Shown here piece after piece: positions 1-16,300 of a stretch of 64,000 bases of DNA (the stretch's first letter is position 1; each line of letters starts with the position of its first letter). Origin of the DNA: an uncultured Bacteroidota bacterium. GTDB lineage: Bacteria > Bacteroidota > Bacteroidia > AKYH767-A > 2013-40CM-41-45. A program made the translations under genes and the position numbers. Under the pieces are notes generated by a model. The model was not told where the DNA came from. It saw only the letters and a list, made by a program, of their open reading frames with translations, and ran no database searches. The stretch covers positions 2,971,601-3,035,600 of the forward strand of contig CAVZJJ010000004.1 of NCBI GenBank assembly GCA_963775555.1, read 5' to 3'.

Positions 1-1543
1 TTCTTCCGCTGCCGCAGGTTATAAAAATCACATTGCCGGGCTGGTAAAATTAATGGCATCGGTTAGAATTGCGGCACTGGAAATAAAGGGTAAATACGAC
101 GAAGAAATTCACGGAGAATATTTTTCCAATTTCAACTGGCATTATTTTACAAAAGAAGAAGCAGCGTTGTGTCCCCCTGTTATTTTAATCGAGGAAACTC
201 AAAACTTATTGGGAAATGAATTACCCCATTTTTCCACATTAATTTCTTCGAACATACCTGTAAAAGTGATGGCCCTCCATCCCTCATTGCCTGTAAAAAT
301 ACATTCGAATGAAACAGAAGCTGATGAAATGCTTTCATTTCAGCAAGAATTAAGTGCGATTGCAATTTCTCATCGCAATGCATATACGCTTCAAAGCACC
401 GTACATCTTCCGATCCATATGTTAAAAGGAATTGAATCGGGCCTGTCTGCTTCTTCGCCTGCTTTGTTTCATGTAATGATACCTGCTGAACTATCCGGCC
501 TTGATTCAGGTTCCATGAAACTTGCCAGTCAACAATTTCTGGATATCAGCGCATCGGTGGAAGGAAGACAATTTCCCATCTTCACCTACAATGCAGGAGA
601 TACAAAATGGGGAAGCCGGTTCGATATAAGTTCAAATCCTCAACCTGCAAAAGATTGGCCGGCATATGAAATAGAAGTCAGGAATCAAAATAGCGAAATC
701 GAAAAACTTGATCTTGCCTTCACTTTCGCTGATTTCTTTGCAGTAAATCGCCTAAATGCAAACAATTTGTTGGTAGTAGATGCTTCCTATTGGACAGAGG
801 ATTTAATCCCCTTAAACGAATACCTTCAACTTCCATCGGACAAACTATATGCTAAAGTTCCATTCATCTGGCTTGTTGATGCAGATAACAAATTGCACAA
901 AGCTGCAGTCCCGTTTTCATTAGTTGTAGCTGCTAAAGAGCGGTTGGATTATTGGAATTTCATACAGGAACTTGGTGGCGTCAACAGCTTTCATGTGGAG
1001 CAGGCAGTAAAGCATACCCGGGAAGAGATGCTTGAACAAAAAGCTGAGGAGATTAAAAAACTGCAAAACGATTTCGAAAAACAAATAGAAGCAGTTCGTT
1101 TATCCGCTGCCGGAGAAGCCATGAATAAATTAGCGGGGATTTTGCTTGATCTTGATAGTATCTCCACGGCGCCTGTTATAAAAACTGCGAATGAATCTGT
1201 CAGGAAGTCTTCAACTGTTGAAATCACGCCCCTTGAAAATAATGCAGCCCCTGCGAATACATCAACGGCTGCGATTGAAAAAGAGACTGAGGCTTCTACA
1301 GAACCCTGGGTTGAAACATTCAGATGTACCTCCTGCAATGAATGCACGGATAAATACCCCAGGGCGTTCAAGTACGATGGCGAAAAGCAGGCCTATTTAG
1401 ATGATCCCACTACCATCACTTTCGCCCAGCTGGTGAAGGCCGCAGAAGCCTGCCCGGCAAAGTGCATTCATCCCGGCATGCCTTTGAATCCGAATGAACC
1501 CGGTTTGCCTGAGCTGATCGCCAAGGCAAAAAAATTAAATTAA
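1..1543 (+). CDS. C-terminal part of a diverged PFOR-like protein; the frame is open to the window edge. It ends in a coiled-coil segment and a ferredoxin-like domain (CTSCNECTDKYP...CPAKCIHPG).
   Basis: The frame is open from nt 2. The region FHVMIPAELSGLDSGSMKLASQQFLD...QFPIFTYNAGDTKWGSRFDISSNPQP parallels the PFOR domain VI/VII tail (VIAYATCINQGL...YWPLFRYDP...LDSKAP). A Lys/Glu-rich heptad-like stretch follows, then a Cx2Cx2C...CP cluster motif. Confidence 0.45.
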   Translation, partial: SSAAAGYKNHIAGLVKLMASVRIAALEIKGKYDEEIHGEYFSNFNWHYFTKEEAALCPPVILIEETQNLLGNELPHFSTLISSNIPVKVMALHPSLPVKIHSNETEADEMLSFQQELSAIAISHRNAYTLQSTVHLPIHMLKGIESGLSASSPALFHVMIPAELSGLDSGSMKLASQQFLDISASVEGRQFPIFTYNAGDTKWGSRFDISSNPQPAKDWPAYEIEVRNQNSEIEKLDLAFTFADFFAVNRLNANNLLVVDASYWTEDLIPLNEYLQLPSDKLYAKVPFIWLVDADNKLHKAAVPFSLVVAAKERLDYWNFIQELGGVNSFHVEQAVKHTREEMLEQKAEEIKKLQNDFEKQIEAVRLSAAGEAMNKLAGILLDLDSISTAPVIKTANESVRKSSTVEITPLENNAAPANTSTAAIEKETEASTEPWVETFRCTSCNECTDKYPRAFKYDGEKQAYLDDPTTITFAQLVKAAEACPAKCIHPGMPLNPNEPGLPELIAKAKKLN

Positions 1544-1548
1544 CCGTT

Positions 1549-2443
1549 ATGGCAAATGAAATTATTACAGCAATAGCCATTCTCACAGGGCTTGGGCTGT
1601 TATTTGCCGTCATCCTTGCCCTTGCGTATAAAAAATTAAAAGTTTACGAAGACCCGCGTATCGATAAGGTGGAAGACATGCTTCCCAAAGCCAATTGTGG
1701 AGCATGCGGTGCTCCCCGGTTGCAGAGCATTTGCAGAAATGGTGGTGGCTAACACTATCAATCCGGGCAAATGCACTGTGAGTTCACCGGAAGGAATCGA
1801 TATGATTGCGAAATACATGGGTGTAGAGGCAAGTCAGGAGGAAAAAGTAGTTGCCAGACTCTTGTGTGCAGGTGGAAAAAATGAAGCACATAGTCTCGCA
1901 AACTATAAGGGAGGTTTGAGTACCTGCCGCGGGGAAGCCGTTGTAGCAGGAGGACCAAAACAATGTTCATGGGGCTGCCTGGGATTGGCTGATTGTGAAA
2001 AGGCATGTGATTTTGACGCGATACATATGAATGAAAACGGGCTCCCGGTAGTAGATATAATTAAATGTACTGCCTGCGGGGATTGTGTGGATATCTGTCC
2101 TAAAGGACTATTTGTTCTGATGCCAATAGGACAAAAACTAATTGTTCAGTGCAAGTCCCTTTTAGAAGGACGTGAAGCAGAAGAACGTTGTTCTGTTGCC
2201 TGCACGGCATGTGGTAAATGCGTAGCTGACTCTGTCCCCGGATTGATTGAAATAAAAAACAATCTGGCAGTGATCAATTACGAAAACAACGCTCTTGCCT
2301 CAGCAGATTCCATCAAACGTTGCCCTACTAATGCCATTGTATGGTTGGAAAATCTCAAGCAATTTGATATCCAACAGGCAACAGAACTTCCCATTGGTCA
2401 TGTAGAGAATTTGTCTGATCTGGAAAATGTATATTATCAGTAA
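1549..2443 (+). CDS. rnfB: Rnf electron transport complex subunit B (RnfB), read from two overlapping ORFs joined by a +1 frameshift in a CCCC run near 1715-1718.
   Basis: N-terminal membrane anchor, then LPKANCGACG in frame 1. Frame 2 continues PGCRAFAEMVVANTINPGKC, matching the RnfB consensus CGxCGYPGCRPYAEA, followed by two 4Fe-4S ferredoxin motifs (CTACGDCVDICP, CTACGKC). Confidence 0.75.
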
Positions 2444-2448
2444 CGAAA

Positions 2449-5400
2449 ATGAAAACAAAATATCATAACCTGTTGGGCAAAAAAATAAGCCTCAATGCCC
2501 GGGATGCTGCCTGGCACATGATGTCTGCAATTTGCGAAAGCATATTATGTTCAGAACACGGCCTTCCTCTTGATAAAAACTTATTCGGGCGGCCGCTAAC
2601 TTCTTCCAGCTCCAATGACATTTCATTTTCCTCCGGGTTTGCATCTACAGGTTTGCGATCAGGTATTATTTTGAATGCAGGGCATCTGTCATCAAATCTG
2701 GAAAACATTGCCCATGCTGTAAGAGTGCATATACCCTTAGTGATCTTTTCAAGTGTCAACTCCCAACTTCAGGTTTCGCAACTTTCTCAAACCGGTGGTC
2801 TTGTATTTTCTGCAAACACTTGTCAGGAAGCAGTAGACCTTTTACTCATTGGCTACCGGATCGCTGAGCTATCACTTATTCCTGTAATAGTGTGCATAGA
2901 TGAAGCACTTTGCAATACCGAAGAAACAATATTTTTTCCGGAGAAAGAACTGCTGGCAACATTTGCCGGAAGTCCCGACATCCTTATTTCCAGTCCTACC
3001 GCATCTCAGCAAATAATTTTTGGCAAGCAAAGAAAAAGAATACCGAATTGGTTTAATCTTGACAACCCCGTTTCCATTGGAGCCGAAAAGCAAGCGAATG
3101 AATCAGCGCTTGAAACAGCTGCTCAGCAGGAATTCTTTTATCAACACCTGCAGGAAACGATACACGATTCATTTCAGGCGTTCCATAAGGCAAGTGAAAG
3201 GAATTACCACGAAGTAGAGGCACATCATTCAAAAGATGCTGAATATCTTTTGCTAAGTTATGGCAGCATTTCTAAGGAAGCACTCAATGCAGTTGAAAAA
3301 AACAATTCAGGTAATAAAGTAAAAACTGCTGCTTTAAGACTTATACAGATCAGTCCATTTCCTGAAAAAGCAGTACGTACCCACCTGGAAAGAATAAAAG
3401 TAGTTACTGTGCTTGAGCAAGCAATTAACGGATTCCTGCAGACACCTGTTTTTAAAGAATTATCCTGTCTCAACGAATTAAAACACATAAAACTATTTTC
3501 AGGGAACTATGGCTCTGTACCTTCCACCGGGAGCTTACTGGATGTAATATCGAATATGTACCCCGGAGGAAAGGGCAAATCAAAATTTTGGATTGACCTT
3601 GAATTTAGCCACACAGATTCTAACTATCCCAAGCATCAGGTATTGATGCAAGCCATAGACAGGGAGTATCCGGATGTAAAAAACAAAACGATTTCTTCGT
3701 CTTCGATATCAAAAGAAAATTTGCAGAATAATAATATTATTCCACAGAGTATAAGAAAATACAAAGACCAGGGCCCTGCTTATGCAAAGCTGTCGCGGTT
3801 TTTTGATGATACAGCAAGTTTCTTTCTTACACATCCCGAAGAACTGGTAGCTGATCCCTTCCAGGCCCTCCCGGTAATGCCACCATTAACCGCTTACCTG
3901 CCGGACGGTCAGACTAATTCCAATGCAGCCGAAAGAAAACTTTTACCGGAATTCAACTCAGCAAAATGCAGTGGATGTGGCGATTGTTTTCTGCATTGTC
4001 CTCATTCAGCAATCAACCCATTGGCTATCGGTATGGAGAATTTTATTAAAGCAGGGGCTTCCATTTCCAGTGCCAACGGAATAAAAATTACCCAACTCAC
4101 CCCACTGATAAAAAATATTGCAAAGAACAGCCATGAAATAATAAAACAAAATGCAGGTGGTATTCATTCCATTTCTGATTTCCTTCCAGCTGCTTTTGAG
4201 AAGGTTGCTCTGCAAATGAAACTCGAGGGTGAAAAACTACAGACGGCAAAACAAGACATGGAATCGGTAACCGCGGCTTTAAAAAACTTACCACTGTCGA
4301 TAACATATACTTTTTATAATAATCCGGATCAAGTCCAGCCAGGAAGCGGCGAACTATTTACTCTTGCAATTGATACAACATCATGCACCGGATGCTCGGT
4401 CTGTGCCAGTGTATGCCAGGACGATGCCCTTGAGATGCGGGAATTAAGCATGGATATCATCTCTTCTCACCGGGAAAACTATGCTGTCTGGGAACAAATG
4501 CCCGACACCGGTGCGGCCATTATAACCCGCCTTCTCGACGATGAAAATTACAATTCATTTTCTGCACTCTTATTAAGCCGCCATTTTAATTTAGCGCTCA
4601 ATGGACGGAGCATGGATAATGAAGGAGACGCTTCCAAATCAATGGTACATCTTATCACAGCCATTGCAGAAGCGGCCATTCAACCCAAGGTAAAAGATAC
4701 CATCAAGACGATCGACGAATTAATTTCCGGCTTGTCTTTGAATATTCAGACTCAATTGGGATCTGCCGTGCCTTCGCAGGATATCGATGCACTTTCAAAA
4801 GCTCTCTCAGAAATAAAAGAAGACAAGAAACCATTTGAGGAAGTGATTGAAAAAATCGGAATGGGAGAACACCTTAAGCTTGTTGATACAAAAAGTTTAA
4901 AACGAAAAGTTGATCTCACCAAATCCCTGAGGACATTAAGCTGGTTGCTCAGCGAGGGTGCCTCGGGATCAGGTCGATCAAGGATGGGGCTTGCATTGGA
5001 CGGCTCATTAAAATGGACGAATTCATATCCCTGGAATAACTTTACTTCGCCTGTTATAATTCAAGTCAGCGGTAGCTCTCCTGAATTAGCAAAAGGCATT
5101 GTTCAGGGGCAAATCAGGCAAGTGCTTGATAACATTAAAATTCTACGGAGGGCAGAACTTGAAATAAACGGAACATACGAGCCCGGGGTGAATGATATTC
5201 AAATTGCATCACTCAACTGGGATGACCTGACAGAAAAAGAAAAGGATCTGGTTCCTCCAATTATTTTGATTGGGAACAAAAGTAAACTTGCAGGTACGGA
5301 GTTGATTTCTTTGGTGAGTATGCTCGATTGTGACTGGCCATTGAAAGCAATTGTGCTGGATGACGCATCTCCTCAGAGTGATAATGCAGGTGCGGAAATC

Positions 5401-6219
5401 ATCGGCAGCGTGGGAAGCCTGCTTCCTGCCCTTTCATTAGGCAAAGTACATGTACTTAAAAGTTCTCTTGCCGCACCTAAACAATTATTCAATGGGCTAT
5501 CACAGGTTTTCAATAGCAACGCACCTGCCCTGGCATGGGTATTTGTTCCGGTTCCTTCAAAGCACATGATTCCCTCTGAGTCATTTCCAAAACTTCATGC
5601 ACTCAGTCTGAACTCAAGAGCATTCACCTTGTTTGATTTTAACCCCCGGCATGAAGGAACTTTGCTTTCCTCTAAAATGGAGCTGGCAGGAAATCCACAA
5701 AGCGAATCGATTTGGATGCAAAGCAATTTATCATTCAAAGAAGAGGGTGAAGAAAAAACCATGCCTTACTCGCTGACATGGGCGGATTGGGCATATACCT
5801 TAAAATCGTGGAGGGAACATTTTATCCTTCATAATGAAGTGATGGGAAAAGCTACCCTGATTTCTGAATTTATTTTATTGCCGGAATCTGATCGTAGCGG
5901 AAAAGCTCCTGTGATATTCCGCATTGACCAACACGAGGAATTAAAAAAATACAAAGTTTCTGATGAAGTGATTGAAGCTACTGAAGCCTGCGTTCAGGCA
6001 TGGCAGGTGCTAAGGGAAATCAGTGGTGAATTGTCCGAGTTCCCCGAAAAACTACAGAAAAAAGTGGAGGCAAATCTTTCAGAGAAGTATGAAAAAAAGC
6101 TATCCGAAGTAAAGAATGAGTTGGAAAATAAAATAACTAACCTGGAACAAGCCTATCTTGAAAAAATACGCATTAAGCTGAAGGAAAAATTGGTGGAGCT
6201 TTCAAATCAAAAGGCATAA
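2449..6219 (+). CDS. Highly diverged pyruvate:ferredoxin oxidoreductase (PFOR)-like protein, 1256 aa. It keeps the domain-V 2x[4Fe-4S] motifs, but the TPP GDG motif and proximal-cluster cysteines are apparently lost. The C-terminus is coiled-coil.
   Basis: YLLLSYGSISKEALNAV...KTAALRLIQISPFPEKAV...KVVTVLEQAINGF parallels PFOR domain II (VIVSMGSSCETIEEVI...IGLIKVRLYRPF...KVITVLDRTKEPG). CSGCGDCFLHCPHSAI and CTGCSVCASVCQ match the PFOR ferredoxin domain. FTLFDFNPRHEG resembles WPLFRYDP. The tail is a Lys/Glu heptad repeat. Confidence 0.5.
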   Translation: MKTKYHNLLGKKISLNARDAAWHMMSAICESILCSEHGLPLDKNLFGRPLTSSSSNDISFSSGFASTGLRSGIILNAGHLSSNLENIAHAVRVHIPLVIFSSVNSQLQVSQLSQTGGLVFSANTCQEAVDLLLIGYRIAELSLIPVIVCIDEALCNTEETIFFPEKELLATFAGSPDILISSPTASQQIIFGKQRKRIPNWFNLDNPVSIGAEKQANESALETAAQQEFFYQHLQETIHDSFQAFHKASERNYHEVEAHHSKDAEYLLLSYGSISKEALNAVEKNNSGNKVKTAALRLIQISPFPEKAVRTHLERIKVVTVLEQAINGFLQTPVFKELSCLNELKHIKLFSGNYGSVPSTGSLLDVISNMYPGGKGKSKFWIDLEFSHTDSNYPKHQVLMQAIDREYPDVKNKTISSSSISKENLQNNNIIPQSIRKYKDQGPAYAKLSRFFDDTASFFLTHPEELVADPFQALPVMPPLTAYLPDGQTNSNAAERKLLPEFNSAKCSGCGDCFLHCPHSAINPLAIGMENFIKAGASISSANGIKITQLTPLIKNIAKNSHEIIKQNAGGIHSISDFLPAAFEKVALQMKLEGEKLQTAKQDMESVTAALKNLPLSITYTFYNNPDQVQPGSGELFTLAIDTTSCTGCSVCASVCQDDALEMRELSMDIISSHRENYAVWEQMPDTGAAIITRLLDDENYNSFSALLLSRHFNLALNGRSMDNEGDASKSMVHLITAIAEAAIQPKVKDTIKTIDELISGLSLNIQTQLGSAVPSQDIDALSKALSEIKEDKKPFEEVIEKIGMGEHLKLVDTKSLKRKVDLTKSLRTLSWLLSEGASGSGRSRMGLALDGSLKWTNSYPWNNFTSPVIIQVSGSSPELAKGIVQGQIRQVLDNIKILRRAELEINGTYEPGVNDIQIASLNWDDLTEKEKDLVPPIILIGNKSKLAGTELISLVSMLDCDWPLKAIVLDDASPQSDNAGAEIIGSVGSLLPALSLGKVHVLKSSLAAPKQLFNGLSQVFNSNAPALAWVFVPVPSKHMIPSESFPKLHALSLNSRAFTLFDFNPRHEGTLLSSKMELAGNPQSESIWMQSNLSFKEEGEEKTMPYSLTWADWAYTLKSWREHFILHNEVMGKATLISEFILLPESDRSGKAPVIFRIDQHEELKKYKVSDEVIEATEACVQAWQVLREISGELSEFPEKLQKKVEANLSEKYEKKLSEVKNELENKITNLEQAYLEKIRIKLKEKLVELSNQKA

Positions 6220-6321
6220 GATAAATCTCAACAAACCTAAGGAACGAATGATGACACCGCCAATCAGCAGCTCATCCACTATATATACTACGCAACAACT
6301 CTGCGCACAGGGCAAGGCAAT

Positions 6322-7659
6322 ATGAAGCAGACACTCACATTCGATCATGGTATTCATCCTGAAGAATACAAAGAGCTGACGGATCATTGCAAGGTAGAGC
6401 GAATGCCTTTTGTAGAAGATTATATCCTGCCGCTCTCCCAGCATTTGGGAGCACCCAACAAACCCCTTGTCCAAAAGGGGAATAAGGTGAGGCGAGGACA
6501 AAAGATCGCAGCGGCAAATGGATTTGTTTCCGTTGCGCTTCATTCTCCGGTAGACGGAACTGTTTCCGGAATAGGTCTCGCTGAACATCCGAATGGACAG
6601 ATGGTACAGAGCATTTTTATAAAAGCCGACCCCTTTTCCACACAACAACTTAGTCCTTCTTTTCCTAAGCCCTACGAAGAAATGACGGTGAAGGAATTTA
6701 TTACTTCCATTCAGGAGTCGGGGATTGTAGGATTAGGAGGTGCTGCATTCCCTGCTCATGTTAAATTTTCCATTCCCGAAGGCAAAACCTGCCGTTACAT
6801 ACTATTGAATGGCTGCGAATGCGAGCCCTTTTTAACTTCGGACCACAGAACCATGGTAGAGTATCCGGACGATGTGATTGACGGCATCCGGATTCTGCAA
6901 CATTTTATAAAAGCAGAAAAAATATTTATCGGCATTGAAACCAACAAACCTGATGCCATTTCCATTCTTGATGACAAGGCAAGAAACTCAGGCCTTCCAC
7001 TGGAAGTAATTCCACTTCAAGTGAAGTATCCACAGGGTGCAGAAAAGATGATGATTACCGCGATTCTTGAAAAGGAGGTGCCCACCGGAAAGCTTCCTCT
7101 GGATGTTGAAACACTGGTGACGAACATCAGTTCCATTGCAGCCATCAGTCAATGGTTCCGGAAAGGTCAGCCCTTAATAGAACGTATCGTTACCGTCACC
7201 GGCACTGCCATTCAACGGCCCGCCAATGTGATGGTCCCATTTGGTACACCAATGAAACATGTAGTGGAATTATGTGGGGGTGTTACATCAAAGGCTTCAA
7301 GGATATTACTTGGCGGCCCGATGATGGGTATGGTACAGAAAACGCTGGACATACCTGTGGTAAAGGGAACTTCCGGCATTCTGATTTTAACATCAGAAGA
7401 AGTACGGGACCTTGAGCAATACAGTTGTATTCGTTGCGGAAGATGTCTTGAGGCATGTCCAATGCATTTAAATCCATCCTTGCTTGGCATGCAGGCGAAA
7501 AAAGGCCTATGGGAGGAAATGGAAGAGAATCATGTTCTGGATTGCTTTGAATGCGGATGTTGTTCTTATGTTTGTCCCTCAGGAATACCCTTGGTTCAAA
7601 GCTTCCGAGTGGGCAAAGGTATCATCAGAGAACAGAAGGCGAGAGAAATGAAGAAATAG
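6322..7659 (+). CDS. rnfC: Rnf complex subunit C (RnfC), the NADH-binding Fe-S subunit.
   Basis: GLGGAAFPAHVKF motif. Two C-terminal 4Fe-4S motifs (CIRCGRCLEACP, CFECGCCSYVCP). Sits in the rnf gene order. Confidence 0.9.
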   Translation: MKQTLTFDHGIHPEEYKELTDHCKVERMPFVEDYILPLSQHLGAPNKPLVQKGNKVRRGQKIAAANGFVSVALHSPVDGTVSGIGLAEHPNGQMVQSIFIKADPFSTQQLSPSFPKPYEEMTVKEFITSIQESGIVGLGGAAFPAHVKFSIPEGKTCRYILLNGCECEPFLTSDHRTMVEYPDDVIDGIRILQHFIKAEKIFIGIETNKPDAISILDDKARNSGLPLEVIPLQVKYPQGAEKMMITAILEKEVPTGKLPLDVETLVTNISSIAAISQWFRKGQPLIERIVTVTGTAIQRPANVMVPFGTPMKHVVELCGGVTSKASRILLGGPMMGMVQKTLDIPVVKGTSGILILTSEEVRDLEQYSCIRCGRCLEACPMHLNPSLLGMQAKKGLWEEMEENHVLDCFECGCCSYVCPSGIPLVQSFRVGKGIIREQKAREMKK

Positions 7660-7760: not shown

Positions 7761-8765
7761 ATGAGCGAAGAAAAAAAACTAACCGTTTCGACCTCACCTT
7801 TTTTACACGATACAGCAACTACGCCCTGGATCATGTATCAGGTGGTTTATTCTCTGATTCCTATAATAGGAGCGGCTTATTATTTCTTTGGCTTGGGGGC
7901 ATTGGCGGTAATTACCCTGTCAGTGACAGGTTGTTTGTTCACCGAACAATTATTCAGTAAGTCGTTTTTTAGTTTTGATAAAATAAAAGACGGAAGTGCT
8001 ATTATCACCGGTATCCTCCTGGGATTAACTTTGCCTCCCGGTTTTCCTTTATGGATGGCCTTTTTAGGAGGAGTTGTTGCCATCGGCATGGGAAAAATAA
8101 TGTGGGGAGGATTAGGACAAAATATATTCAATCCCGCATTGGTTGGAAGGGCCTTTTTACAAGCATCCTTTCCTACAGCTATCACTACCTGGTCACCCCC
8201 GGATGGAAGATACTTCAGTTTCAGGGGAACAAACATTGGTGTTCCATTTTTTCAAACTGAAAATGTGGATGGAATAACCACCGCTACGCCCTTATCCAGA
8301 ATGAAATTCGAACATGTATTTGCCGGTTGGCAGGATTTACTTGTAGGAAATGTTGGAGGATCAATCGGTGAAACATGTGGCATCCTGTTTCTTATCGCAG
8401 GAATTTATCTCATTGCAAGGAAAATAATTCATTGGCGCATCCCGGTAGCTATCCTTCTCACAGTGTCCATCTTATCAGGCATCTTCTGGCTGATCGATCC
8501 ATTACGTTATCCCAGTCCTCTATTTATGATTTTTTCAGGTGGCCTGCTGCTAGGCACTGTTTACATGGCAACTGATTTGGTCACGTCCCCCATAACACCC
8601 AAGGGAGCTTGGATTTACAGTATTGGAATAGGAATTTTCGTTGTGTTGATTCGACTCTGGGGTGGACTTCCAGAAGGTGTCATGTATGCTATTTTGCTTA
8701 TGAATGCGGCAACGCCATTGCTAAATAAATATACCAAAGTGAAAACTTACGGTTATAAAAAATAA
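7761..8765 (+). CDS. rnfD: Rnf complex subunit D (RnfD/NqrB family).
   Basis: Polytopic membrane protein with the conserved ATDLVTSP (FMN-Thr attachment region) motif. Confidence 0.9.
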   Translation: MSEEKKLTVSTSPFLHDTATTPWIMYQVVYSLIPIIGAAYYFFGLGALAVITLSVTGCLFTEQLFSKSFFSFDKIKDGSAIITGILLGLTLPPGFPLWMAFLGGVVAIGMGKIMWGGLGQNIFNPALVGRAFLQASFPTAITTWSPPDGRYFSFRGTNIGVPFFQTENVDGITTATPLSRMKFEHVFAGWQDLLVGNVGGSIGETCGILFLIAGIYLIARKIIHWRIPVAILLTVSILSGIFWLIDPLRYPSPLFMIFSGGLLLGTVYMATDLVTSPITPKGAWIYSIGIGIFVVLIRLWGGLPEGVMYAILLMNAATPLLNKYTKVKTYGYKK

Positions 8766-9481
8766 TGGAAGAAGAAATAAATACACAGAACAATCCCACT
8801 CCGGAAATTTCGGAAGAAAAAGAGCCCAGTTCCTTTCGGCTTATTTTTACGCTGGGCCTGGCAGGATTTCTTTCTGGTTTGGTGATGGTGGCTTCTTATC
8901 TATATACTAAACCATTGATAGAAGCCAATAAGGCCGCTGCAATTGAAAAAGCAATTTTAAAAGTGCTGCCCAATTGTTCTTCCTTTAAAACGCTGGAATT
9001 TAAAGATGGGAAGCTTGAAGACTATAATCCAAAGGAAAGTAAACCAGCATCCAAAGCGAATACTCCAAAACGAATTTACTGGGGTTTTGATAAATCAGGT
9101 GCTACAATCGGATTCGCAGTATTAGGAAACGAAATCGGTTTTGCAGATGTAATCACGGTTCTAATAGGATACGATGCAGTTAAAAAAAATATTATTGGTT
9201 TCGAAGTATTGGACTGCAAAGAAACTCCCGGATTAGGAGATAAGATAATTAAAGATGTAAATTTTCAAAAGAACTTTACTGAGCTCCTAACAGAACCGGA
9301 AATCCTGTTTGCCAAAAAAGGAGAAAAGCAAAAACCGAACGAAGTGGAAGCGATTACAGGGGCAACTATCAGTTCGAAAGCGGTTATAAGATTATTAAAC
9401 AAATCAATGAAAGAGTGGAAAGAACCAATTGACAATTTTATTAAACTTAATCCAAATAAATCCATTGAAATAAAAAAATGA
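8765..9481 (+). CDS. rnfG: Rnf complex subunit G (RnfG/NqrC family, FMN-binding).
   Basis: Single N-terminal TM segment. An ITGATISS-type flavinylation motif (EAITGATISSKAV). TAATG overlap with rnfD. Confidence 0.85.
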   Translation: MEEEINTQNNPTPEISEEKEPSSFRLIFTLGLAGFLSGLVMVASYLYTKPLIEANKAAAIEKAILKVLPNCSSFKTLEFKDGKLEDYNPKESKPASKANTPKRIYWGFDKSGATIGFAVLGNEIGFADVITVLIGYDAVKKNIIGFEVLDCKETPGLGDKIIKDVNFQKNFTELLTEPEILFAKKGEKQKPNEVEAITGATISSKAVIRLLNKSMKEWKEPIDNFIKLNPNKSIEIKK

Positions 9482-10110
9482 GTGAGGAAAAAACTAATCA
9501 TGCAATGGAGGTCTTCACAAAAGGACTTTGGAAAGAAAATCAGATTTTCGTTGCCATACTCGGAATGTGTCCTGCACTTGCCGTTACTAATTCCGGAATT
9601 AATGGCTTAGCAATGGGAATAGCGACCACCGTCGTCCTCATTCTTTCCAATTTATTGATTTCCATTTTTAGAAACGTAATTCCAAAACAGGTTCGGATAA
9701 CTGCCTTTATTGTAATCATTGCAACATTGGTTCAGGTTATTGATTTTGCACTAGCCGCTTTAGTACCTGCCATTCACAAAGAACTCGGCGCTTTCATTGC
9801 TCTCATTGTTGTGAATTGCATTATCCTTGGCAGAGCAGAATCCTTTGCAGCAAAAAACAAGCCCTGGCTTTCTGTCCTGGATGGAGCCGGCATGAGCATT
9901 GGATTTACATTTGCCCTGGTGCTTATTGGAGTCATTCGTGAAATTCTCGGCACAGGCGCCATATTCAATTTTCCATTATTCGGTCCAAAATTCGAACCTT
10001 GGGTGATCATGGTGCTGCCACCCGGAGGATTTATCACACTTGGTTTTTTATTGTTGTTCTTTAGCTGGTACACTCAAAAAAAAGAAAATAAGTTAAAAAA
10101 AACTGAATAG
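9478..10110 (+). CDS. rnfE: Rnf complex subunit E (RnfE/NqrD family).
   Basis: Small polytopic membrane protein (GMCPALAVT, IVVNCIILGRAE). ATGA overlap with rnfG. Confidence 0.9.
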   Translation: MSEEKTNHAMEVFTKGLWKENQIFVAILGMCPALAVTNSGINGLAMGIATTVVLILSNLLISIFRNVIPKQVRITAFIVIIATLVQVIDFALAALVPAIHKELGAFIALIVVNCIILGRAESFAAKNKPWLSVLDGAGMSIGFTFALVLIGVIREILGTGAIFNFPLFGPKFEPWVIMVLPPGGFITLGFLLLFFSWYTQKKENKLKKTE

Positions 10111-10115
10111 CCGGT

Positions 10116-10694
10116 ATGGAAAAATTACTCTGGATTTTTATCTCCGCATTATTAATAAATAATTTTACCCTCACTTATTTTCTGGGTCTTTGTTCTTTTT
10201 TTGGAGTTACAACCAAAATTGAGACTGCCATTCGTCTTGGACTTGCCAATATTTTTGTGATGATAATTACCGCCCTTTGTGTTTACGCTTTAAACACTTG
10301 GGTATTGTCTTACGCTCCCTATCTGCGGATGATCAGCTTCATCATTGTAATAGCCAGTGCCGTCCAGTTTGTGGAAATGGCTATTAAAAAATTAAGCCCT
10401 GAACTTTTTAAAGCTCTCGGGATATACCTTCCTCTTATCACCACCAACTGCGCGATACTTGCATTGGCACTTTTCACGACCAACAAGGGATATGGATTTG
10501 TTGAAGGTCTGGTTTATGCTTTGGGTGCGGGGTTAGGAGTAACACTTGCCCTGGTACTACTAGCCGGAATCCGAGAAGAATCAAGATTGCTAAATATCCC
10601 TAAACTGATACAGGGGACTGCAATAAACATGATCATTGCAGGTATATTATCGATGGCATTTATGGGATTTGCAGGACTATTCAGCGGAAATTAA
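10116..10694 (+). CDS. rnfA: Rnf complex subunit A (RnfA/NqrE family).
   Basis: Six-TM protein with LPLITTNCAILA motifs. Last gene of the rnf run. Confidence 0.9.
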   Translation: MEKLLWIFISALLINNFTLTYFLGLCSFFGVTTKIETAIRLGLANIFVMIITALCVYALNTWVLSYAPYLRMISFIIVIASAVQFVEMAIKKLSPELFKALGIYLPLITTNCAILALALFTTNKGYGFVEGLVYALGAGLGVTLALVLLAGIREESRLLNIPKLIQGTAINMIIAGILSMAFMGFAGLFSGN

Positions 10695-10695
10695 T

Positions 10696-10875
10696 ATGGA
10701 AAAATATTTACAATACATTCTACCAATACTTGCGTTTGCACTGTTGGCTTCCGGTTGGGCAGCAGTACAGTTGATTGCAAAAAAGTCCGGAACCAAAAAT
10801 CATATAGACCATGGAGGGGGTTGTTGCGGCGCCTGCGATAATAAAGACAGTTGCAGTAAATCTGAAATAATATAA
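10696..10875 (+). CDS. 59-aa Cys-rich small membrane protein (one TM helix, then GGGCCGACDNKDSC). It resembles the FeoB-associated Cys-rich small membrane protein family.
   Basis: The ATG lies 1 nt after the rnfA stop. Hydrophobic helix ILPILAFALLASGWAAV followed by a GGGCCGAC cluster. Confidence 0.5.
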   Translation: MEKYLQYILPILAFALLASGWAAVQLIAKKSGTKNHIDHGGGCCGACDNKDSCSKSEII

Positions 10876-10951: not shown

Positions 10952-12238
10952 ATGGAAATTTTCATTGTATCAATATTCATCCTTGGTTATGCAGCAATTG
11001 CCTTTGAACATCCAATTAAAATCAATAAAGCGGCAAGTGCGCTGCTAACCGGAGTCCTTTGCTGGGTCGTATATGTACTTTTTAGTGGCGAACCGGAAGC
11101 CGTAACGACCGAATTGCAGAATCACCTGGGAAGTTTGTCGGGAATATTGTTTTTCCTCATGGGCGCAATGACCATTGTAGAATTGGTCGATGCACACGAT
11201 GGCTTTGAGGTGATCACCAACCGGATCACCACCACTGATAAACGAAAACTACTCTGGATCGTTTCGATTATCACTTTCTTCCTTTCCGCGGTTCTGGATA
11301 ACCTTACCACCACCATCGTGATGACTTCACTCTGCAGAAAACTTATTTCCAACAAAACAGAAAGAATGTTTTTTGTAGGTATGATTGTTATTGCCGCCAA
11401 TGCAGGGGGTGCATGGAGTCCTATTGGTGACGTCACGACCACAATGCTATGGATGGGAGGGCAAATCACCAGTGGGAACATTATCCTAAAACTCTTTATT
11501 CCTAGTTTAATCTGCCTCATCACCCCATTGATAGCTCTGTCATTCATGCTAAAAGGAACCACAAAGCGACCCGCGGTGATTCCAGCATCAAAAAAAACCA
11601 TCTCTTCAACCCCCTTTGAAAGAAAACTTGTATTCTTTTCCGGCGTGGGGGCACTGGTTTTTGTACCTGTTTTCAAATCCATTACACATCTTCCTCCCTA
11701 TATGGGAATTCTATTCGGACTAAGCATCTTGTGGGTAATTACAGAACTTATTCATCACGAAAAAGGAGAAGAAGAAAAACACGTGTTATCGGTTGTTCAG
11801 GCACTACGAAAAATTGATGTACCAAGCATACTGTTCTTTCTGGGAATCCTGATTGCCATTTCTGCACTGGAGAGCACGCATATTCTCCATCACCTTGCAC
11901 AAGTGATGAATGATAATATTGGGAATCAAAGTTTGATTGTGATCAGTATTGGAATTCTTTCTTCCATAGTAGACAACGTACCCCTTGTAGCCGCAACCAT
12001 GGGCATGTACGATATGCATGCATTTCCTGCAGACGATTATCTTTGGGAATTCATCGCTTATTGTGCGGGAACCGGAGGAAGTATGTTGATTATCGGTTCA
12101 GCTGCAGGTGTTGCAGCTATGGGAATGGAAAAAATCGACTTTTTCTGGTACCTAAAGAAATTAGGATGGCTGGCTATGCTGGGTTATTTTGCCGGCGCCT
12201 TAGTGTATATTGCTCAGGATTATTTATTGTATAAATAA
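10952..12238 (+). CDS. nhaD: NhaD-family Na+/H+ antiporter (ArsB/NhaD permease superfamily).
   Basis: 428-aa polytopic membrane protein with the two-repeat architecture typical of NhaD (GGAWSPIGDVTTTMLW motif). Confidence 0.7.
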   Translation: MEIFIVSIFILGYAAIAFEHPIKINKAASALLTGVLCWVVYVLFSGEPEAVTTELQNHLGSLSGILFFLMGAMTIVELVDAHDGFEVITNRITTTDKRKLLWIVSIITFFLSAVLDNLTTTIVMTSLCRKLISNKTERMFFVGMIVIAANAGGAWSPIGDVTTTMLWMGGQITSGNIILKLFIPSLICLITPLIALSFMLKGTTKRPAVIPASKKTISSTPFERKLVFFSGVGALVFVPVFKSITHLPPYMGILFGLSILWVITELIHHEKGEEEKHVLSVVQALRKIDVPSILFFLGILIAISALESTHILHHLAQVMNDNIGNQSLIVISIGILSSIVDNVPLVAATMGMYDMHAFPADDYLWEFIAYCAGTGGSMLIIGSAAGVAAMGMEKIDFFWYLKKLGWLAMLGYFAGALVYIAQDYLLYK

Positions 12239-12250
12239 AAAAACAATACC

Positions 12251-13285
12251 TTATTTTTCTTCCACTAAAAATTCAGCCATTCCCTTACTGAGCATAGTTT
12301 TCATTTCACCTTTTTCATCCGCAAACACAAGATACACCTGAAGGCTCGTATCAGATCGCAAATAGTTCATGGTCTTATCCATGCCCATCACCATAAATGC
12401 CGTCGCGAAAGCATCAGCTGTCATGCAATCACTTGCAATCACAGTAGCACTCAATAAATTATTCAATGCCGGATAACCGGTCGCAGGATCTATTTCGTGG
12501 CTGATTTTTTTTCCGTTCCTGTAATAAAAGTTACGATAGTTCCCTGATGTAGCCAGCGACTTGTTTTCAAGTTTAAGTATATCTTTCAATTCCTGATGTC
12601 TTCCGCTGGCATCGTCAACGGGTTTTTCAATGCCGATTCTCCAACTGCCTTGTGTTTCATTTTTACCCTTTGTCCTAACCTCTCCTCCTATTTCCACCAT
12701 ATAGTTTTCAATTCCGTTTTTCTCAAGGAGCACAGCCAGCAAATCGACTCCATATCCTTTTGCAATGGCGCTAAAATCAACCTGAATCCTGCTATCCAAC
12801 TTTACAACAAAATATTTCCCACCTGATTCCATTATATTTACTTTCCGGTAATCTGCCAATTGCCTTAGGGAATCCACTACTGAACTATCCAGACTGATTG
12901 TATCCGCGAAACCAAAGCCCCATGCATTCACAAGCGGCATTACAGTTGCATCGAATGCTCCATTCGTTTTTTCAGAAACATCCTTCGCCCGAAGAAAAAC
13001 TTTCACGAAATAGTCATCCACTTCAATTAAGGTATCCCCCCTATTCACCCTTGAAATCGTAGAAGCAGGTATATAGGTAGAAACCGATCTGTTGAATTGA
13101 GCCAGGAGAGTATCAATGTCCGCCTGCAGGTTATCTGTAATATATCCATCAGCTTGCCTGGGGGAAGCTGAACAGGAAACATGATAGGTCGTTCCCATGG
13201 TCTTTCCCTCTAACTTCAACCAAGTTGTTTTATTGCTGTTACAATTGACTAAAAACAATATCGCAATCCAGTAAATCCTCTTCAT
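12251..13285 (-). CDS. apbE: FAD:protein FMN transferase (ApbE family) lipoprotein.
   Basis: Signal peptide with a LVNC lipobox. GKTMGTTYHV and AIAKGYGVD motifs characteristic of ApbE. Adjacent to rnf, whose RnfD/RnfG subunits are flavinylated by ApbE. Confidence 0.8.
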   Translation of the reverse strand: MKRIYWIAILFLVNCNSNKTTWLKLEGKTMGTTYHVSCSASPRQADGYITDNLQADIDTLLAQFNRSVSTYIPASTISRVNRGDTLIEVDDYFVKVFLRAKDVSEKTNGAFDATVMPLVNAWGFGFADTISLDSSVVDSLRQLADYRKVNIMESGGKYFVVKLDSRIQVDFSAIAKGYGVDLLAVLLEKNGIENYMVEIGGEVRTKGKNETQGSWRIGIEKPVDDASGRHQELKDILKLENKSLATSGNYRNFYYRNGKKISHEIDPATGYPALNNLLSATVIASDCMTADAFATAFMVMGMDKTMNYLRSDTSLQVYLVFADEKGEMKTMLSKGMAEFLVEEK

Positions 13286-13399: not shown

Positions 13400-16300
13400 T
13401 CATGAAGTTCCCATCACCCTGATCTCTACATGATGTTCTGCTCCGTCATCTATAAGAGTAATCAGCAGTTCCGATTGCTCTACTCCGTCAACAGTCACCT
13501 TCAATTCTTCTGTATTATGAACCTGAGCAACCAGAATATGATAGGGAGTATTCTTGTACTTGTAGTATACTTTAAATGATTCCCAGTCTGCAGGGATGCA
13601 AGGTGCACACCTCAGTTTATCGGCTTCTCTTTGCAGTCCAAGAAAAGATTCAATAATTAAACGGTACATCCAGCCGGCAGATCCCGTATACCAGGTCCAT
13701 CCACCCCGTCCCTCATGAGGAGAACGAGCATAGATATCTGCTGCTAAAACGTATGGTTCCACTTTATACATAGCTATGGTTTTAGCAGTCCTGCCATGGT
13801 TAATCGGATTTATCATATTCAACAATTCCCATACACGTTTCGTATTACCCAATTTGGCAAAAGCCATTATCATCCAAATTGCAGCGTGAGAATATTGGCC
13901 ACCATTCTCCCTTACTCCCGGTACATACCCTTTAATATATCCGGGGTTCATGTCGGACTTGTCAAATGGAGGTTCAAGCAGTTGAATAATACCGATATCT
14001 TTTCTTACAAGGTTCTTGTATGCAGATTCCATAGCAATATTGGCACGGGTAATATCTCCCGCCTGGGATAAAACAGACCAGCTCTGGGAAATGGAATCAA
14101 TCCTGCATTCTTCATTTATTGAAGAGCCCAATGGCGTACCATCATCGAACCATGCCCGCTTGTACCATTCACCATCCCAGGCCGACTTGTCGATATTCTC
14201 TTTCAAACGCTCAGCTTCCTGTATACATTTATCCGCGAAGGCGGAATCGTTGTTCTGACTGGAAATTTTCGAGAATCTGATAAGTATGTCATAGAGGAAA
14301 AATGCCATCCACACACTCTCGCCTTTACCATCCTTTCCCACCTGGTCAAAACCATCATTCCAATCTCCCGCTCCCATCAAAGGAAGACCGTGTTCACCAT
14401 AATTGAAAGCATGTTTTATTGCAAGCACACAGTGATCATACAAGCGGGCTGATTGAAAAGATTGAACAGGAAGGTCATAGTAAGATTCTTCTCCCTGGTT
14501 CAGGGGGCGACCTTCCAGCCAATGCACTTGTTCTTCCAGTATAGCAGAGTCGCCTGTATGAGAAATATAAATTGCAGTAACAAGTGGCAACCAAAGATAA
14601 TCATCTGCGCACCTAGTCCGGACACCCCGGCCAACAGGAGGGTGCCACCAATGTTGAACATCTCCTTCTTTAAACTGACGGGAAGCTGATAATAAGATTT
14701 GTTTGCGAGCCAGATCTGGTACAGCATAGAGAAGCGACAATACATCCTGTAACTGATCCCGGAAGCCAAAGGCTCCTCCGGATTGATAGAATCCGCTTCG
14801 TCCCCAAAGGCGTGAAGAAAGTGTTTGGTAGGTGAGCCATCCATTTGTAATAATATTAATAGCAGTATCCGGAGTTTCCACCTGAACAGCACCAAGGGTC
14901 TCCTGCCAATAACTTATAACTTTTTTTAATGACTCCTGTGCGGCCGCGCTGCCACGAAATTGTTGTGCGAGGCGACTCGCAGTATGATGATCTGTTCCCG
15001 CGCCCAATCTGAAAATAATTTCATGCTCCTCGCCATCTGCCAATTCGAATGAAGCCTGAATCGCAGTGCATGGATCAAGGGCAAGTCCAATTCTCCCGGA
15101 AAGTTTTTGCCTGGACATCGCATCCGGATTTTGTAAAGTTCCATTGCGTCCAATAAATTCTGCACGATCAGCTGTAAATGTTTTTTTGGCATCATCAGTA
15201 TCGAAAAAAGCCACCCGCCTTGAAAATTCAGTATTGTATGGGTTCTTGGCAAAAATGGCTCCTGTGAAAGGATCAACTTCTGTATGAATATACATAGCGT
15301 TTCTTGTCCGATTATCTCCAAGGACCCATTCTGTATAACCTGTTGCAGAGAGCTTGCGGGGTCTGCCTGATTCATTTCGAATTTTTAAGACATTGAATTT
15401 AATGGATGACTCCATATCGACATACACAAGCAATTCTGAATAGATGCCATCTTCCTTGTGTTCAAAAAGACTATACCCAAATCCATGACGACAGATATAG
15501 GGTGCCTGACTGCTACATGGAAGTGCTGTCGCTGACCAGAAATTTCCAATTTCTTCATCGCGAATGTAAAATGCTTCACCGCCGGAATCACTCACAGGGT
15601 CATTCTTCCATGGCGTCAGTCGCAATTCATGTGCATTCTCTGTCCATGTATATGAGGCTCCGCTTTCAGAAATAACTGTTCCGAAACCAGGATTAGCGAT
15701 CACATTCACCCATGGCGTAGGTGTTTTAACATTGTCTTTGATAATTATGACATACTCGGTGCCGTCCGGAGAGAATCCCCCTATACCATTAAAAAATATC
15801 AGATCATATGGAAGCGGAATAGGTGTAAGGTTAGGTTTATATGGCCTCAGAGGAACGATATAAGGAACAACTCCTTTTGAAACCTGCTTACGTTTAACAT
15901 GCTCGGCCAATGAACCTTCAAGGTCTGAAATATTAATGCGCGCTACGGTTTGAAATAAAACGCGATCCTCACTGGAAATTTGATCTGCCGCCCTGACAAA
16001 AATTCCTCCCGGACGATCCGCCAATTCAGAAGGGATAAGTCCTAGAATATCATTCTGAAAATCCTGCCGGTAACCGGTACGTTCTTCATTCCAAATCACG
16101 AGGTCGATGATAAGTCCTTTCAATCGCCAAAAAGCATGTGCTTGTACGAGTTGCTTTACCAATTGCATACTGGTTTGCTTCTCAATTTTCAAAAGCACAA
16201 TCGGTAAGTCGCCTGAAATTGAATAGCCCCATAAACCCGATTGGCCCCTTTGATTGTTAATAAGAATAGCCGGATCGGCCCGGAAAGCAGAATTGGTATA

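Follow-up and report, generated by a model that had tools for sequence, protein, structure and literature searches.

What is a gene for a large, PFOR-like protein doing between rnfB and rnfC? The question is raised by a 64,000-nucleotide stretch of DNA from an uncultured Bacteroidota bacterium (hereafter, the window). A first-pass annotation proposed that the 1256-aa ORF at this site, here called Y, is a catalytically dead PFOR scaffold, and that it provides the Rnf complex with a docking or electron-input module. A second ORF, X, precedes rnfB and was considered to be of the same kind.

The rnf operon and its two PFOR-like proteins

All six Rnf subunit genes (rnfB, C, D, G, E and A) are present in the window, ordered as is usual in Bacteroidota and with the characteristic domains (Pfam, NCBIfam) of the canonical six-subunit complex (A. 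woodii, 9ERI; C. tetanomorphum, 7ZC6). The locus differs from canonical rnf operons in (i) the 1256-aa gene between rnfB and rnfC, (ii) korAB-X upstream, and (iii) a small Cys-rich TM ORF after rnfA. The korAB genes themselves lie outside the window; we infer their presence in this genome from relatives at 53–68% identity. All features described below are on the forward strand.

Y is followed, after a gap of 102 nt, by rnfC (6322–7659; TIGR01945, 527.8 bits; Pfam RnfC_N, Complex1_51K and SLBB), rnfD (7761–8765; Pfam NQR2_RnfD_RnfE, E 1.4e-107), rnfG (8765–9481; Pfam FMN_bind), rnfE (9478–10110; Pfam Rnf-Nqr, E 1.2e-63) and rnfA (10116–10694; Pfam Rnf-Nqr, E 2.1e-54). The small ORF after rnfA (10696–10875; 59 aa) encodes one TM helix and a Cys-rich tail (GGGCCGACDNKDSC). 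No family in Pfam or NCBIfam matched it; homologues are located 3' of rnfA in 37 of 51 loci, gammaproteobacterial ones included. This Cys-rich membrane protein is a candidate extra component of the cluster. There is also a gene for an ApbE flavin transferase nearby, consistent with a working Rnf.

The frame of rnfB (1550–2443) is broken by a 1-nt insertion at about 1712–1719 (GGTGCTCCCCGG): the N-terminal TM helix and CGAC motif are in the frame of the ATG at 1550, and the remainder is in that of ORF 1697–2443. NCBIfam RnfB models match from about profile position 54 onward, with scores below every RnfB equivalog cut-off, and conservation of the C-terminal tail is confined to Bacteroidota. DNA alignment with three relatives (L002, L003 and L005) reveals one extra base in the window's rnfB; the frameshift in this assembly is probably a sequencing error. 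A genuine frameshift may mean that this organism has an inactive module.

Y occupies positions 2449–6219 and, as first annotated, has rnfB and rnfC as its neighbours (here placed at 1550–2443 and 6322–7659). It is collinear with the PFOR superfamily, in homology and in fold, across domains I, II, V and VI; the PFOR domain order originally read in it stands to this extent, but the protein has no domain III, and its domain V is interrupted by an insertion. Domain I (2485–2985; residues 13–179) has a PYR-domain fold from which the TPP-contacting Thr and Glu are gone, and is partially matched by Pfam POR_N (103–167). Domain II (3082–3630; residues 212–394) is matched by Pfam PFOR_II (264–349; E 2.2e-9) and aligns by profile to residues 208–393 of 6cin. 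In place of domain III there follows a low-confidence linker of about 100 residues (pLDDT below 50 at 387–430 of the structural model). Domain V (3940–4443) is a 2×[4Fe-4S] ferredoxin module whose two cluster motifs (Cys507, 510, 513 and 517; Cys646, 649, 652 and 656) are separated by a mostly helical insertion of about 105–120 aa. The pattern CxxCxxCxxxC is present twice, each time within a Pfam Fer4 match (500–522 and 641–662), and the eight cysteines are 97–100% conserved among 72 sequences. The first-pass identification of domain II and of tandem ferredoxin motifs is borne out by these matches, and the quoted strings (CSGCGDCFLHCPHSAI, CTGCSVCASVCQ and GSGRSRMGLALDG) are all located in Y. 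Next comes a domain VI-like region with a PP-domain fold (4546–5958; residues ~700–1170), in which the proximal cysteines and GDG...N are replaced. The structural model ends at residue 1175; beyond it lies a Lys/Glu-rich helical tail (6046–6216; residues 1200–1256), comprising 57 aa after the last Pro, 42% of them K or E, and heptad-like at 1208–1245. This tail is a coiled-coil candidate, as had been proposed, at ~57 rather than ~80 aa.

The window opens within X: positions 2–1543 encode the C-terminal 513 aa of a degenerate PFOR paralogue whose full-length version in this genome (P0056; 100% identical to the partial ORF) has 855 aa. The earlier view of X as a second giant holds insofar as it is a PFOR paralogue in which a helix is followed by a Fer4_13 domain (the strings FPIFTYNAG and SSNPQP are found in it), and fails in that the protein is shorter and is without domains I and II; the domain-V cysteines are also missing. 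Its core is beta-subunit/domain-VI-like, the best Foldseek matches of the AF2 model being PFOR (E 3e-7) and OFOR beta subunits (TMt 0.45–0.51). The core leads into a long helix (989–1147; P0056 residues 672–724), heptad-like at residues 338–375 of the partial ORF and a coiled-coil candidate; alignment of the X and Y families (hhalign) shows it to be homologous to the Y tail. A low-complexity, low-confidence linker (1148–1306; residues 725–777; pLDDT below 50 at 725–772) then connects to a folded, single-cluster [4Fe-4S] ferredoxin (1307–1540; residues 778–855). The latter matches Pfam Fer4_13 above the cut-off (31.1 vs 24.5 bits; E 3.8e-7), and its four cysteines are 100% conserved in 48 X sequences. 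Ferredoxins of the D. africanus ferredoxin I type are physiological acceptors of PFOR. The X-family profile matches this protein (1dax; E 7e-7), and the same CxxCxxC...CP single-cluster pattern is present in both; D. africanus ferredoxin I is a free 64-aa protein, whereas the version in X hangs on a covalent tether from a dead PFOR-like core. The two families align with a probability of 100% (hhalign, E 4e-106), with paralogy beginning at about residue 449 and running onward. Judged by sequence, both X and Y are pseudoenzymes derived from PFOR, and they are paralogues of each other.

Catalytic and cofactor sites

The proteins closest to Y, at 26–30% identity, form a clade of ~1700-aa long PFORs that contain a coiled coil and end in a Fer4_13 domain; we found no literature on this clade. 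Its members are from Acidobacteriota (L069, L074 and L076), Nitrospirae (L079) and Pseudomonadales (L064, copy 2). Long PFORs share the domain-V insertion, a GxGRxR segment, the C-terminal beta region and the helix with Y, and the linker and Fer4_13 tail with X. Unlike Y, they keep domain III and all catalytic and cofactor residues, and are not encoded between rnfB and rnfC. Both X and Y appear to descend from an active ancestor of this type. In the acidobacteriotal L076, intact long PFORs have no membrane complex nearby, an observation that speaks against the tail alone implying docking.

Ten sites—Thr31, Glu64, the four proximal cysteines, G-D-G and Asn—are gone in all 67 degenerate Y sequences, nearly all of which adjoin rnf genes. 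The same sites are intact (TECCCCGDGN) in 5/5 close ~1700-aa relatives, none located between rnfB and rnfC. Since these motif-intact relatives belong to the same clade, the loss of sites in Y is unambiguous. The TPP-binding GDG-(x)n-N motif is found in 0/66 Y and 0/48 X sequences (in X, the GDG, N and Cys columns are intact in none of the 48), and in 5/5 active relatives; in the window's Y, N943-K944-S945 occupies the GDG position, and SNTGGQ is missing. In Y, the Thr31 and Glu64 columns show gaps or varying residues; active relatives have T and E there. All four proximal-cluster columns are non-Cys in every rnf-associated Y, and no conserved Cys was found beyond domain V. The segment GSGRSRMG, first placed at the GDG/CxxC site, instead aligns just before the third proximal Cys (ANATGC in intact relatives).

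The CoA-binding domain III (gamma) is likewise missing from the window's Y, where ~94 profile positions compare with 268 residues in PFOR; alignment columns show it to be deleted in Bacteroidota Y and degenerate in gammaproteobacterial Y. At the level of Pfam profiles, PFOR homology is found as described above, with no TPP_enzyme_C match at E≤0.1 and no POR match in Y. Relative to the homodimeric PFOR/NifJ enzymes (D. africanus, 1B0P; M. thermoacetica, 6CIN), Y thus lacks the TPP motif, proximal cluster, Thr31/Glu64 and domain III, and has in addition the domain-V insertion, an extra C-terminal beta-rich region, the Lys/Glu helix and its place in the rnf operon. With the catalytic sites lost throughout and the eight domain-V cysteines at least 97% conserved, sequence comparison strongly supports the initial proposal of a catalytically dead PFOR that has kept its ferredoxin domain.

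Gene order across genomes

Some 50 genomes, spread over at least five lineages, have the order korA-korB-X-rnfB-Y-rnfCDGEA with the small Cys-rich membrane ORF. Y is directly preceded by rnfB in 60/67 loci and directly followed by rnfC in 56/67, upholding the arrangement in related genomes. X stands upstream, directly after korB, in 51/56 loci; an intact two-subunit OFOR (korAB) plus X lies ahead of rnfB in 47/52; and rnfCDGEA is present in 43/51. Intergenic gaps in the cluster are 2–15 nt or overlaps; the Y–rnfC gap of the window is longer (102 nt). Y co-occurs with rnf genes in Bacteroidota, SAR324, Gammaproteobacteria and Rhodothermales.

Gene order supports a link between Y and Rnf; such order argues for a shared pathway, not for a complex. 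The presence of korAB and X ahead of rnfB means that the module is better read as a KorAB–Rnf adaptor than as the stand-alone input suggested at first pass. In relatives, the genes ahead of X encode the catalytic partner, a two-subunit OFOR of the KorAB type (Sulfolobus tokodaii, 5B46; Magnetococcus OGOR, 6N2N). Its alpha subunit is a fusion of gamma and alpha, its beta subunit holds TPP and a single cluster, and the alpha and beta folds recur in Y and X. This KorAB is intact, with GDG and the Cys motifs in place and a TIGR03710 score above cut-off, and it has no ferredoxin domain; in X and Y the situation is reversed, their ferredoxin modules being kept and catalysis lost.

The module was thought to be undescribed, which appears correct within the literature searched. 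The sole trace is the label 'PFOR-like ferredoxin' given to an X homologue in Endoriftia transcriptomics (PMC11636981). A precedent for a lineage-specific redox accessory subunit on Rnf is provided by Methanosarcina, where the multihaem cytochrome MmcA is encoded in the rnf operon (bioRxiv 10.1101/2022.07.20.500911). MmcA, a c-type cytochrome, belongs to the output side and has no homology to X and Y. The latter are Fe-S proteins of PFOR origin, added at the low-potential input side.

A putative adaptor between KorAB and RnfB

We favour, with a probability of roughly 0.6, the reading that X and Y form a pseudoenzyme-derived Fe-S adaptor passing electrons between KorAB and RnfB, dedicated to the 11-gene module korA-korB-X-rnfB-Y-rnfCDGEA plus small membrane ORF. 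Going by their residues, X and Y have lost the capacity to bind TPP or a proximal cluster and to oxidise a 2-oxoacid. The pair keeps three [4Fe-4S] clusters: two in Y domain V, and one in the ferredoxin-I-like domain of X, tethered via the long helix and a flexible, disordered linker. The two proteins would most likely form a pseudo-dimer mimicking the PFOR homodimer, with their homologous C-terminal helices as a coiled coil. Catalytic KorAB, with its proximal cluster only, would exchange electrons with the X ferredoxin and the two clusters of Y; from these, electrons would pass to the membrane-anchored polyferredoxin RnfB, and through Rnf to NAD+, with ion translocation (or in reverse). In keeping with this reading, intact long PFORs also neighbour membrane pumps (L064 and L079, below), and the KorA, KorB and X homologues of Endoriftia respond together. 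Weighing against it are the lack of a TM segment or recognisable docking motif in X and Y, an RnfB C-terminal tail conserved in Bacteroidota only, the 102-nt gap that separates Y from rnfC in the window, the rnfB frameshift and the location of korAB outside the window. The analysis shows homology, lost catalytic residues, retained clusters, X–Y paralogy and a gene order conserved across phyla; that X and Y form a heterodimer, that they touch KorAB and RnfB, and which way the electrons run is what we infer.

A less probable, still serious alternative is that X and Y are OFOR subunits only, supplying the missing delta/ferredoxin module of a soluble KorAB-X-Y holoenzyme that uses Rnf through transient collisions, without stable docking. 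The position of X directly after korB and the missing ferredoxin domain of KorAB fit this well, as does the lack of a membrane anchor in X and Y. So does co-regulation in Endoriftia, where the neighbouring KorA(3), KorB(3) and X homologue decrease together under H2S limitation (PMC11636981). Further, in L079, korAB and an intact long PFOR occur without rnf genes, followed instead by nuoB-CD-H-I-L-M (nuoEFG is missing). Against this, Y lies away from korAB, with rnfB on one side and rnfC on the other, in 56–60 of 67 loci; in Beggiatoaceae, rnfB–Y adjacency is kept even with the remaining cluster dispersed and no korAB or X adjacent; and L064 pairs a second rnfB paralogue with an intact long PFOR that follows it.

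A new role for Y at what used to be the TPP pocket, be it ligand sensing, regulation or new catalysis, in place of passive electron transfer, is improbable. Pseudoenzymes often turn into regulators, the domain I/VI core of Y is well folded (pLDDT mostly 85–95), and several basic or glycine residues are invariant (G837, G840, G842, R843, K966 and R1057). However, 103 of 118 conserved Y positions, among them G837, G840, G842, R843 and R1057, are identical in the active relatives, and so give no sign of a new active site. The 15 differing positions are scattered, about half being like-for-like (R/K, F/Y, L/V); no new Cys, His or acidic cluster is seen, and the residues replacing GDG differ between lineages.

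That Y is a functional nifJ-like PFOR feeding Rnf directly is very unlikely: its overall fold is that of PFOR, and relatives are auto-annotated 'pyruvate/2-oxoacid:ferredoxin oxidoreductase alpha subunit/ferredoxin', but equivalents of GDG...N, the proximal cysteines, Thr31/Glu64 and domain III are gone, and Y scores 54.9 bits against TIGR02176 (cut-off 911). An assembly chimera or a set of decaying pseudogenes, which the frameshifts in the window's rnfB and in korB and X of a related long-read MAG (L001) might suggest, is hardly credible given the same gene order in about 50 independent assemblies from several phyla, and full-length open X and Y in which 118 and many more positions stay conserved at identities as low as 27–35%.

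An adaptor of X and Y between KorAB and RnfB may be extended, tentatively and at odds we put below even, to a single hard-wired supercomplex in which these proteins are joined by all six subunits of Rnf and by the small Cys-rich membrane protein. It would work as an ion-translocating, ferredoxin-free 2-oxoacid:NAD+ oxidoreductase or, reversed, as an ion-gradient-driven 2-oxoacid synthase. If so, the pseudo-PFOR heterodimer would be a docking platform, and the X ferredoxin a swinging arm between OFOR and RnfB. The motif-intact relatives would likewise serve Rnf (L064) and a NuoEFG-less complex I (L079), and together these systems would make up a general class of 'plug-in' OFORs that serve membrane pumps, in bacteria that are for the most part aerobic or microaerobic.

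Gene content of the window

The genes of interest fill the first 10.9 kb of the window, all on the + strand: the last 513 codons of X (a degenerate, PFOR-derived protein; ending at 1543), rnfB (1550–2443), Y (a PFOR-derived ORF of 1256 codons; 2449–6219), rnfC (6322–7659), rnfD (7761–8765), rnfG (8765–9481), rnfE (9478–10110), rnfA (10116–10694), and a small ORF of 59 codons (10696–10875). X and Y are called as ORFs and the rnf genes by Pfam/NCBIfam matches, with rnfC scoring 527.8 bits against a TIGR01945 cut-off of 246. The small ORF starts 2 nt past the rnfA stop codon, encodes one transmembrane helix and a cysteine-rich tail (GGGCCGACDNKDSC), and has no Pfam or NCBIfam family. The report of a PFOR-like gene within an rnf operon, made in the first-pass annotation, is real, with the corrections given below.

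In the window, rnfB is not a single open frame: the ATG at 1550 sets the frame for the transmembrane helix and for the Fe-S domain's first CGAC, and the remainder lies in the frame of ORF 1697–2443. Alignment with three relatives places one extra base at GGTGCTCCCCGG, near 1712–1719. Since both halves of the gene are otherwise well conserved, and similar frameshifts occur in korB and X of a related long-read MAG, the break probably stems from a homopolymer error in sequencing and does not mark a pseudogene; a real lesion is the less probable explanation. Programmed frameshifting was rejected, as rnfB is a single frame in relatives.

A CitMHS-family transporter gene (10952–12238, +) lies between the cluster and a gene for an ApbE FAD:protein FMN transferase (12251–13285, −; Pfam E 8e-84), 1.5 kb downstream of the cluster. 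ApbE-type enzymes flavinylate RnfG and RnfD. Further along, 13400–22084 (−) encodes a 2894-aa protein whose domains (GT2, glucoamylase-like, and GH94 supersandwich and catalytic) are arranged as in a cyclic beta-1,2-glucan synthase. Of two large surface-type proteins (22629–26555 and 49194–53339, both −), one combines Sortilin/Vps10 with PKD repeats, and the other bears a CHU_C type IX secretion signal in addition to seven PKD repeats. Such proteins fit a Bacteroidota host; taken with the closest relatives of Y, they place the organism near Chitinophagaceae and Saprospiraceae within that phylum. Sigma-70 promoter and terminator scans of the window gave results at or below chance and are uninformative for Bacteroidota, and Rfam and tRNA scans of the window returned no matches.

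Loss of the active site and retention of iron-sulfur clusters in Y

Y is a member of the PFOR superfamily by homology and fold. Pfam detects POR_N (partial), PFOR_II, and two Fer4 motifs, while TPP_enzyme_C and the POR (gamma) domain are absent. A single-sequence phmmer search against the PDB gave weak matches only (E 3e-6), and a family profile was required: a 35-member Y-family profile matches M. thermoacetica PFOR with E 3.3e-43, in collinear segments covering domain I (13–179), domain II (212–394), the two halves of domain V (488–533 and 630–695), and the C-terminal part of domain VI (960–1078). The Pfam domains and this profile match place the PFOR likeness originally claimed for Y far beyond chance. 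In fold comparison, Y scores 39.0 against an OFOR alpha subunit (345 residues, 2.1 A), 37.5 against PFOR (718 residues, 23.7 A), 19.4 against a PFOR beta subunit (247 of 291 residues, 2.8 A), and 8.8 against a PFOR delta subunit (79 of 83 residues, 2.0 A). Two features had gone unnoted in the first pass: domain III is missing, and an insertion of ~105–120 residues, mostly helical, separates the two cluster motifs of domain V. The protein ends in a heptad-like tail (1200–1256; 57 aa, 42% K+E).

Scanning species-representative genomes gave 261 matching stretches, of which the best 80 loci were analysed. Five of the proteins encoded there are ~1700-aa "long PFORs" (from Acidobacteriota L069, L074, and L076, Nitrospirae L079, and, as a second copy, Pseudomonadales L064), which have Y's insertions and C-terminal helix and show ~29% identity to Y over the shared C-terminal region. 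They keep (i) YPITPS and the EGEH Glu of domain I, (ii) a full domain III, (iii) the proximal-cluster cysteines CxxC, ANATGC, and TPC, and (iv) the TPP motif, IGGDGAMxDIG...LDTQVYSNTGGQ. The ten diagnostic columns spell TECCCCGDGN in each of the five; this set is kept in none of the 67 other Y sequences, most of which keep none of the ten residues. In the Y of the window, the GDG position is occupied by N943-K944-S945. The string GSGRSRMG, earlier proposed as the replaced motif, is present in Y, where its aligned position directly precedes the third proximal cysteine; the active long PFORs share its GxGRxR part.

The reading of Y, a PFOR superfamily member, as a functional PFOR is contradicted by the diagnostic columns (0/67), by the absence of TPP_enzyme_C, and by the missing domain III. 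Judged from its sequence, Y passes none of the tests for catalytic competence as a PFOR/OFOR, and should thus not be annotated as one. At the same time, the eight cysteines of its 2x[4Fe-4S] domain are 97–100% conserved, with no other conserved cysteine in the Y family. Together with the lost diagnostic set, these eight domain-V cysteines lend good support to the first-pass interpretation of Y as a dead PFOR scaffold.

Alternatively, Y could have gained a new active site. Among the degenerate Y sequences, 118 positions are at least 88% conserved, and 103 of them are identical in the active relatives, which contradicts this alternative; the other 15 are scattered, with about half being like-for-like exchanges (R/K, F/Y, L/V). 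Y looks instead like an inherited scaffold, in which the wire has been kept and the active site lost.

The paralogue X and the origin of the pair

The protein upstream of rnfB had been taken for a second giant; in the window genome, full-length X (P0056) has 855 aa. When the two families are compared with hhalign, the match (probability 100%, E 4e-106) runs from around residue 449 of Y to its end and identifies X, at the profile level, as a true paralogue of Y. In Bacteroidota, X has neither domain I nor domain II, and the cysteines of domain V are gone; GDG, Asn, and the fourth cysteine are present in 0 of 48 X sequences. Its AlphaFold2 model (pLDDT 81.3) has a beta-subunit-like core, with PFOR (E 3e-7) and OFOR beta subunits (TMt 0.45–0.51) as best Foldseek matches. 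Past the core, the model contains a 53-residue helix (672–724) and a linker of ~48 residues modelled with low confidence. A folded Fer4_13 domain follows; it is a homologue of D. africanus ferredoxin I (E 7e-7), and all four of its cysteines are invariant (n=48 sequences). Neither X nor Y has an NCBIfam family. Judged by these motifs, X and Y are incapable of TPP chemistry, and keep three [4Fe-4S] sites between them. The Y tail is homologous to the X helix, from which we infer that the pair may form a heterodimeric coiled coil.

Domain V and the helix-linker-ferredoxin tail occur together in the active long PFORs, themselves an uncharacterised clade. The simplest history would be duplication of a long-PFOR-type enzyme followed by complementary degeneration, with domain V staying in Y and the tethered ferredoxin in X. 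A neighbour-joining (NJ) tree of the common C-terminal region gathers the X sequences in one group and the active clade in another, and does not resolve Y as a group; it does not firmly place duplication before degeneration or the reverse. One unclassified MAG (L080, 4251–8708) carries an X of 1486 aa with degenerate domain I/II-like and domain III-like sequence, which looks like an intermediate between a long PFOR and the 855-aa Bacteroidota X.

Gene neighbourhood and proposed role

In relatives, the gene order is two-subunit OFOR (korA-korB), X, rnfB; the presence of korAB in the window genome is inferred from these. KorA, a gamma+alpha fusion, scores above the cut-off of TIGR03710; in KorB, both GDG and the cluster cysteines are intact. 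Neighbours were counted over the 81 loci analysed, using only those with enough flanking sequence. Immediately adjacent to Y are rnfB upstream (60/67 loci) and rnfC downstream (56/67); X lies upstream in 51/56 and korAB in 47/52, and rnfCDGEA follows in 43/51. That the arrangement is an assembly artefact is contradicted. Small-ORF homologues follow rnfA in 37/51 loci, gammaproteobacterial ones included, and may encode an extra membrane component of the module. Intergenic gaps are typically 2–15 nt, or the genes overlap. The cluster is carried by Bacteroidota (Saprospiraceae, Lewinellaceae, Chitinophagaceae, Cyclobacteriaceae, Flavobacteriales), Gammaproteobacteria (Sedimenticola, Woeseiaceae, Chromatiales, Pseudomonadales), SAR324, Rhodothermales, and one further metagenomic example; in Beggiatoaceae it is dispersed, with rnfB-Y pairs kept. 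MAGs related to Sedimenticola, Woeseia, Phaeodactylibacter, and Haliscomenobacter are among the carriers of the cluster.

Variations on this layout include an extra rnfC-like gene immediately upstream of korA in three Sedimenticolaceae and Chromatiales loci (L057, L065, L078; ~1600–3500), and a second korA-korB pair, which either closely precedes the first or comes after rnfA, in four Saprospiraceae loci (L009, L024, L027, L030). Among the loci analysed, motif-intact long PFORs never lie between rnfB and rnfC; two nonetheless adjoin membrane pumps. In Pseudomonadales MAG ETNP8_MAG_37 (L064, 18907–24118), a complete korAB-X-rnfB-Y-rnfCDGEA-small-ORF cluster is followed by a second rnfB paralogue (52% identity to the first) and an intact long PFOR, cut by the locus end. 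In Nitrospirae MAG JACPQY010000011 (L079, 6565–23999), korA and korB precede a motif-intact ~1739-aa PFOR with coiled coil and tethered Fer4_13; directly 3' are nuoB, nuoCD, nuoH, nuoI-like, nuoL, and nuoM, without nuoEFG. Here, an active "plug-in" OFOR may feed a complex I that has no NADH module.

In the usual description, Rnf is a ferredoxin:NAD+ pump of six subunits that receives its electrons from freely diffusing ferredoxin. The cluster, found across several phyla, suggests a different arrangement. In it, X and Y are inherited as a unit with a complete Rnf and an OFOR that has no ferredoxin domain of its own. X and Y would form a PFOR-like pseudo-dimer, in which the tethered ferredoxin of X and domain V of Y would relay electrons between the KorB cluster and the membrane-anchored polyferredoxin RnfB. 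Such a chain would couple the oxidation of 2-oxoacids to ion export and NAD+ reduction or, run in reverse, use the gradient to drive reductive carboxylation. Docking on Rnf, as first proposed for Y, is a plausible reading, to which the korAB context and the cross-phylum synteny add weight. A C-terminal RnfB peptide considered as a docking motif was set aside, being conserved only within Bacteroidota. The main rival would assign X and Y, as subunits, to a soluble OFOR holoenzyme and not to Rnf; the chemistry would be unchanged.

The sole trace of the module in the literature searched, a search with most subscription-journal papers outside its scope, is a transcriptomic study of Endoriftia: adjacent KorA(3), KorB(3), and "PFOR-like ferredoxin" drop together under sulfide limitation, the last of which its authors interpret as a possible PFOR isoform (PMC11636981). 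A Ferrigenium preprint proved unrelated, and Reyes-Prieto 2014, on rnf operon evolution, contains no mention that we found of an inserted or additional gene or of pyruvate. The nearest conceptual precedent is the MmcA cytochrome of Methanosarcina Rnf, likewise a lineage-specific accessory redox subunit but unrelated to X and Y in sequence.

Databases label Y "4Fe-4S binding protein" or "PFOR alpha subunit/ferredoxin", and X "ferredoxin". If our reading is true, it would correct a widespread mis-annotation that inflates pyruvate synthase and rTCA predictions in metagenomes, and would provide a clean case of an enzyme turned electron-transfer scaffold. Hosts of the cluster include environmentally abundant bacteria: activated-sludge Saprospiraceae and Lewinellaceae, Woeseiaceae, SAR324, Sedimenticola/Endoriftia, and giant sulfur bacteria. 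In these, a low-potential donor may be attached to Rnf via dedicated pseudoenzyme subunits; oxygen-exposed bacteria could then link the oxidation or synthesis of 2-oxoacids to an ion gradient with no need for a free pool of oxygen-labile ferredoxin.
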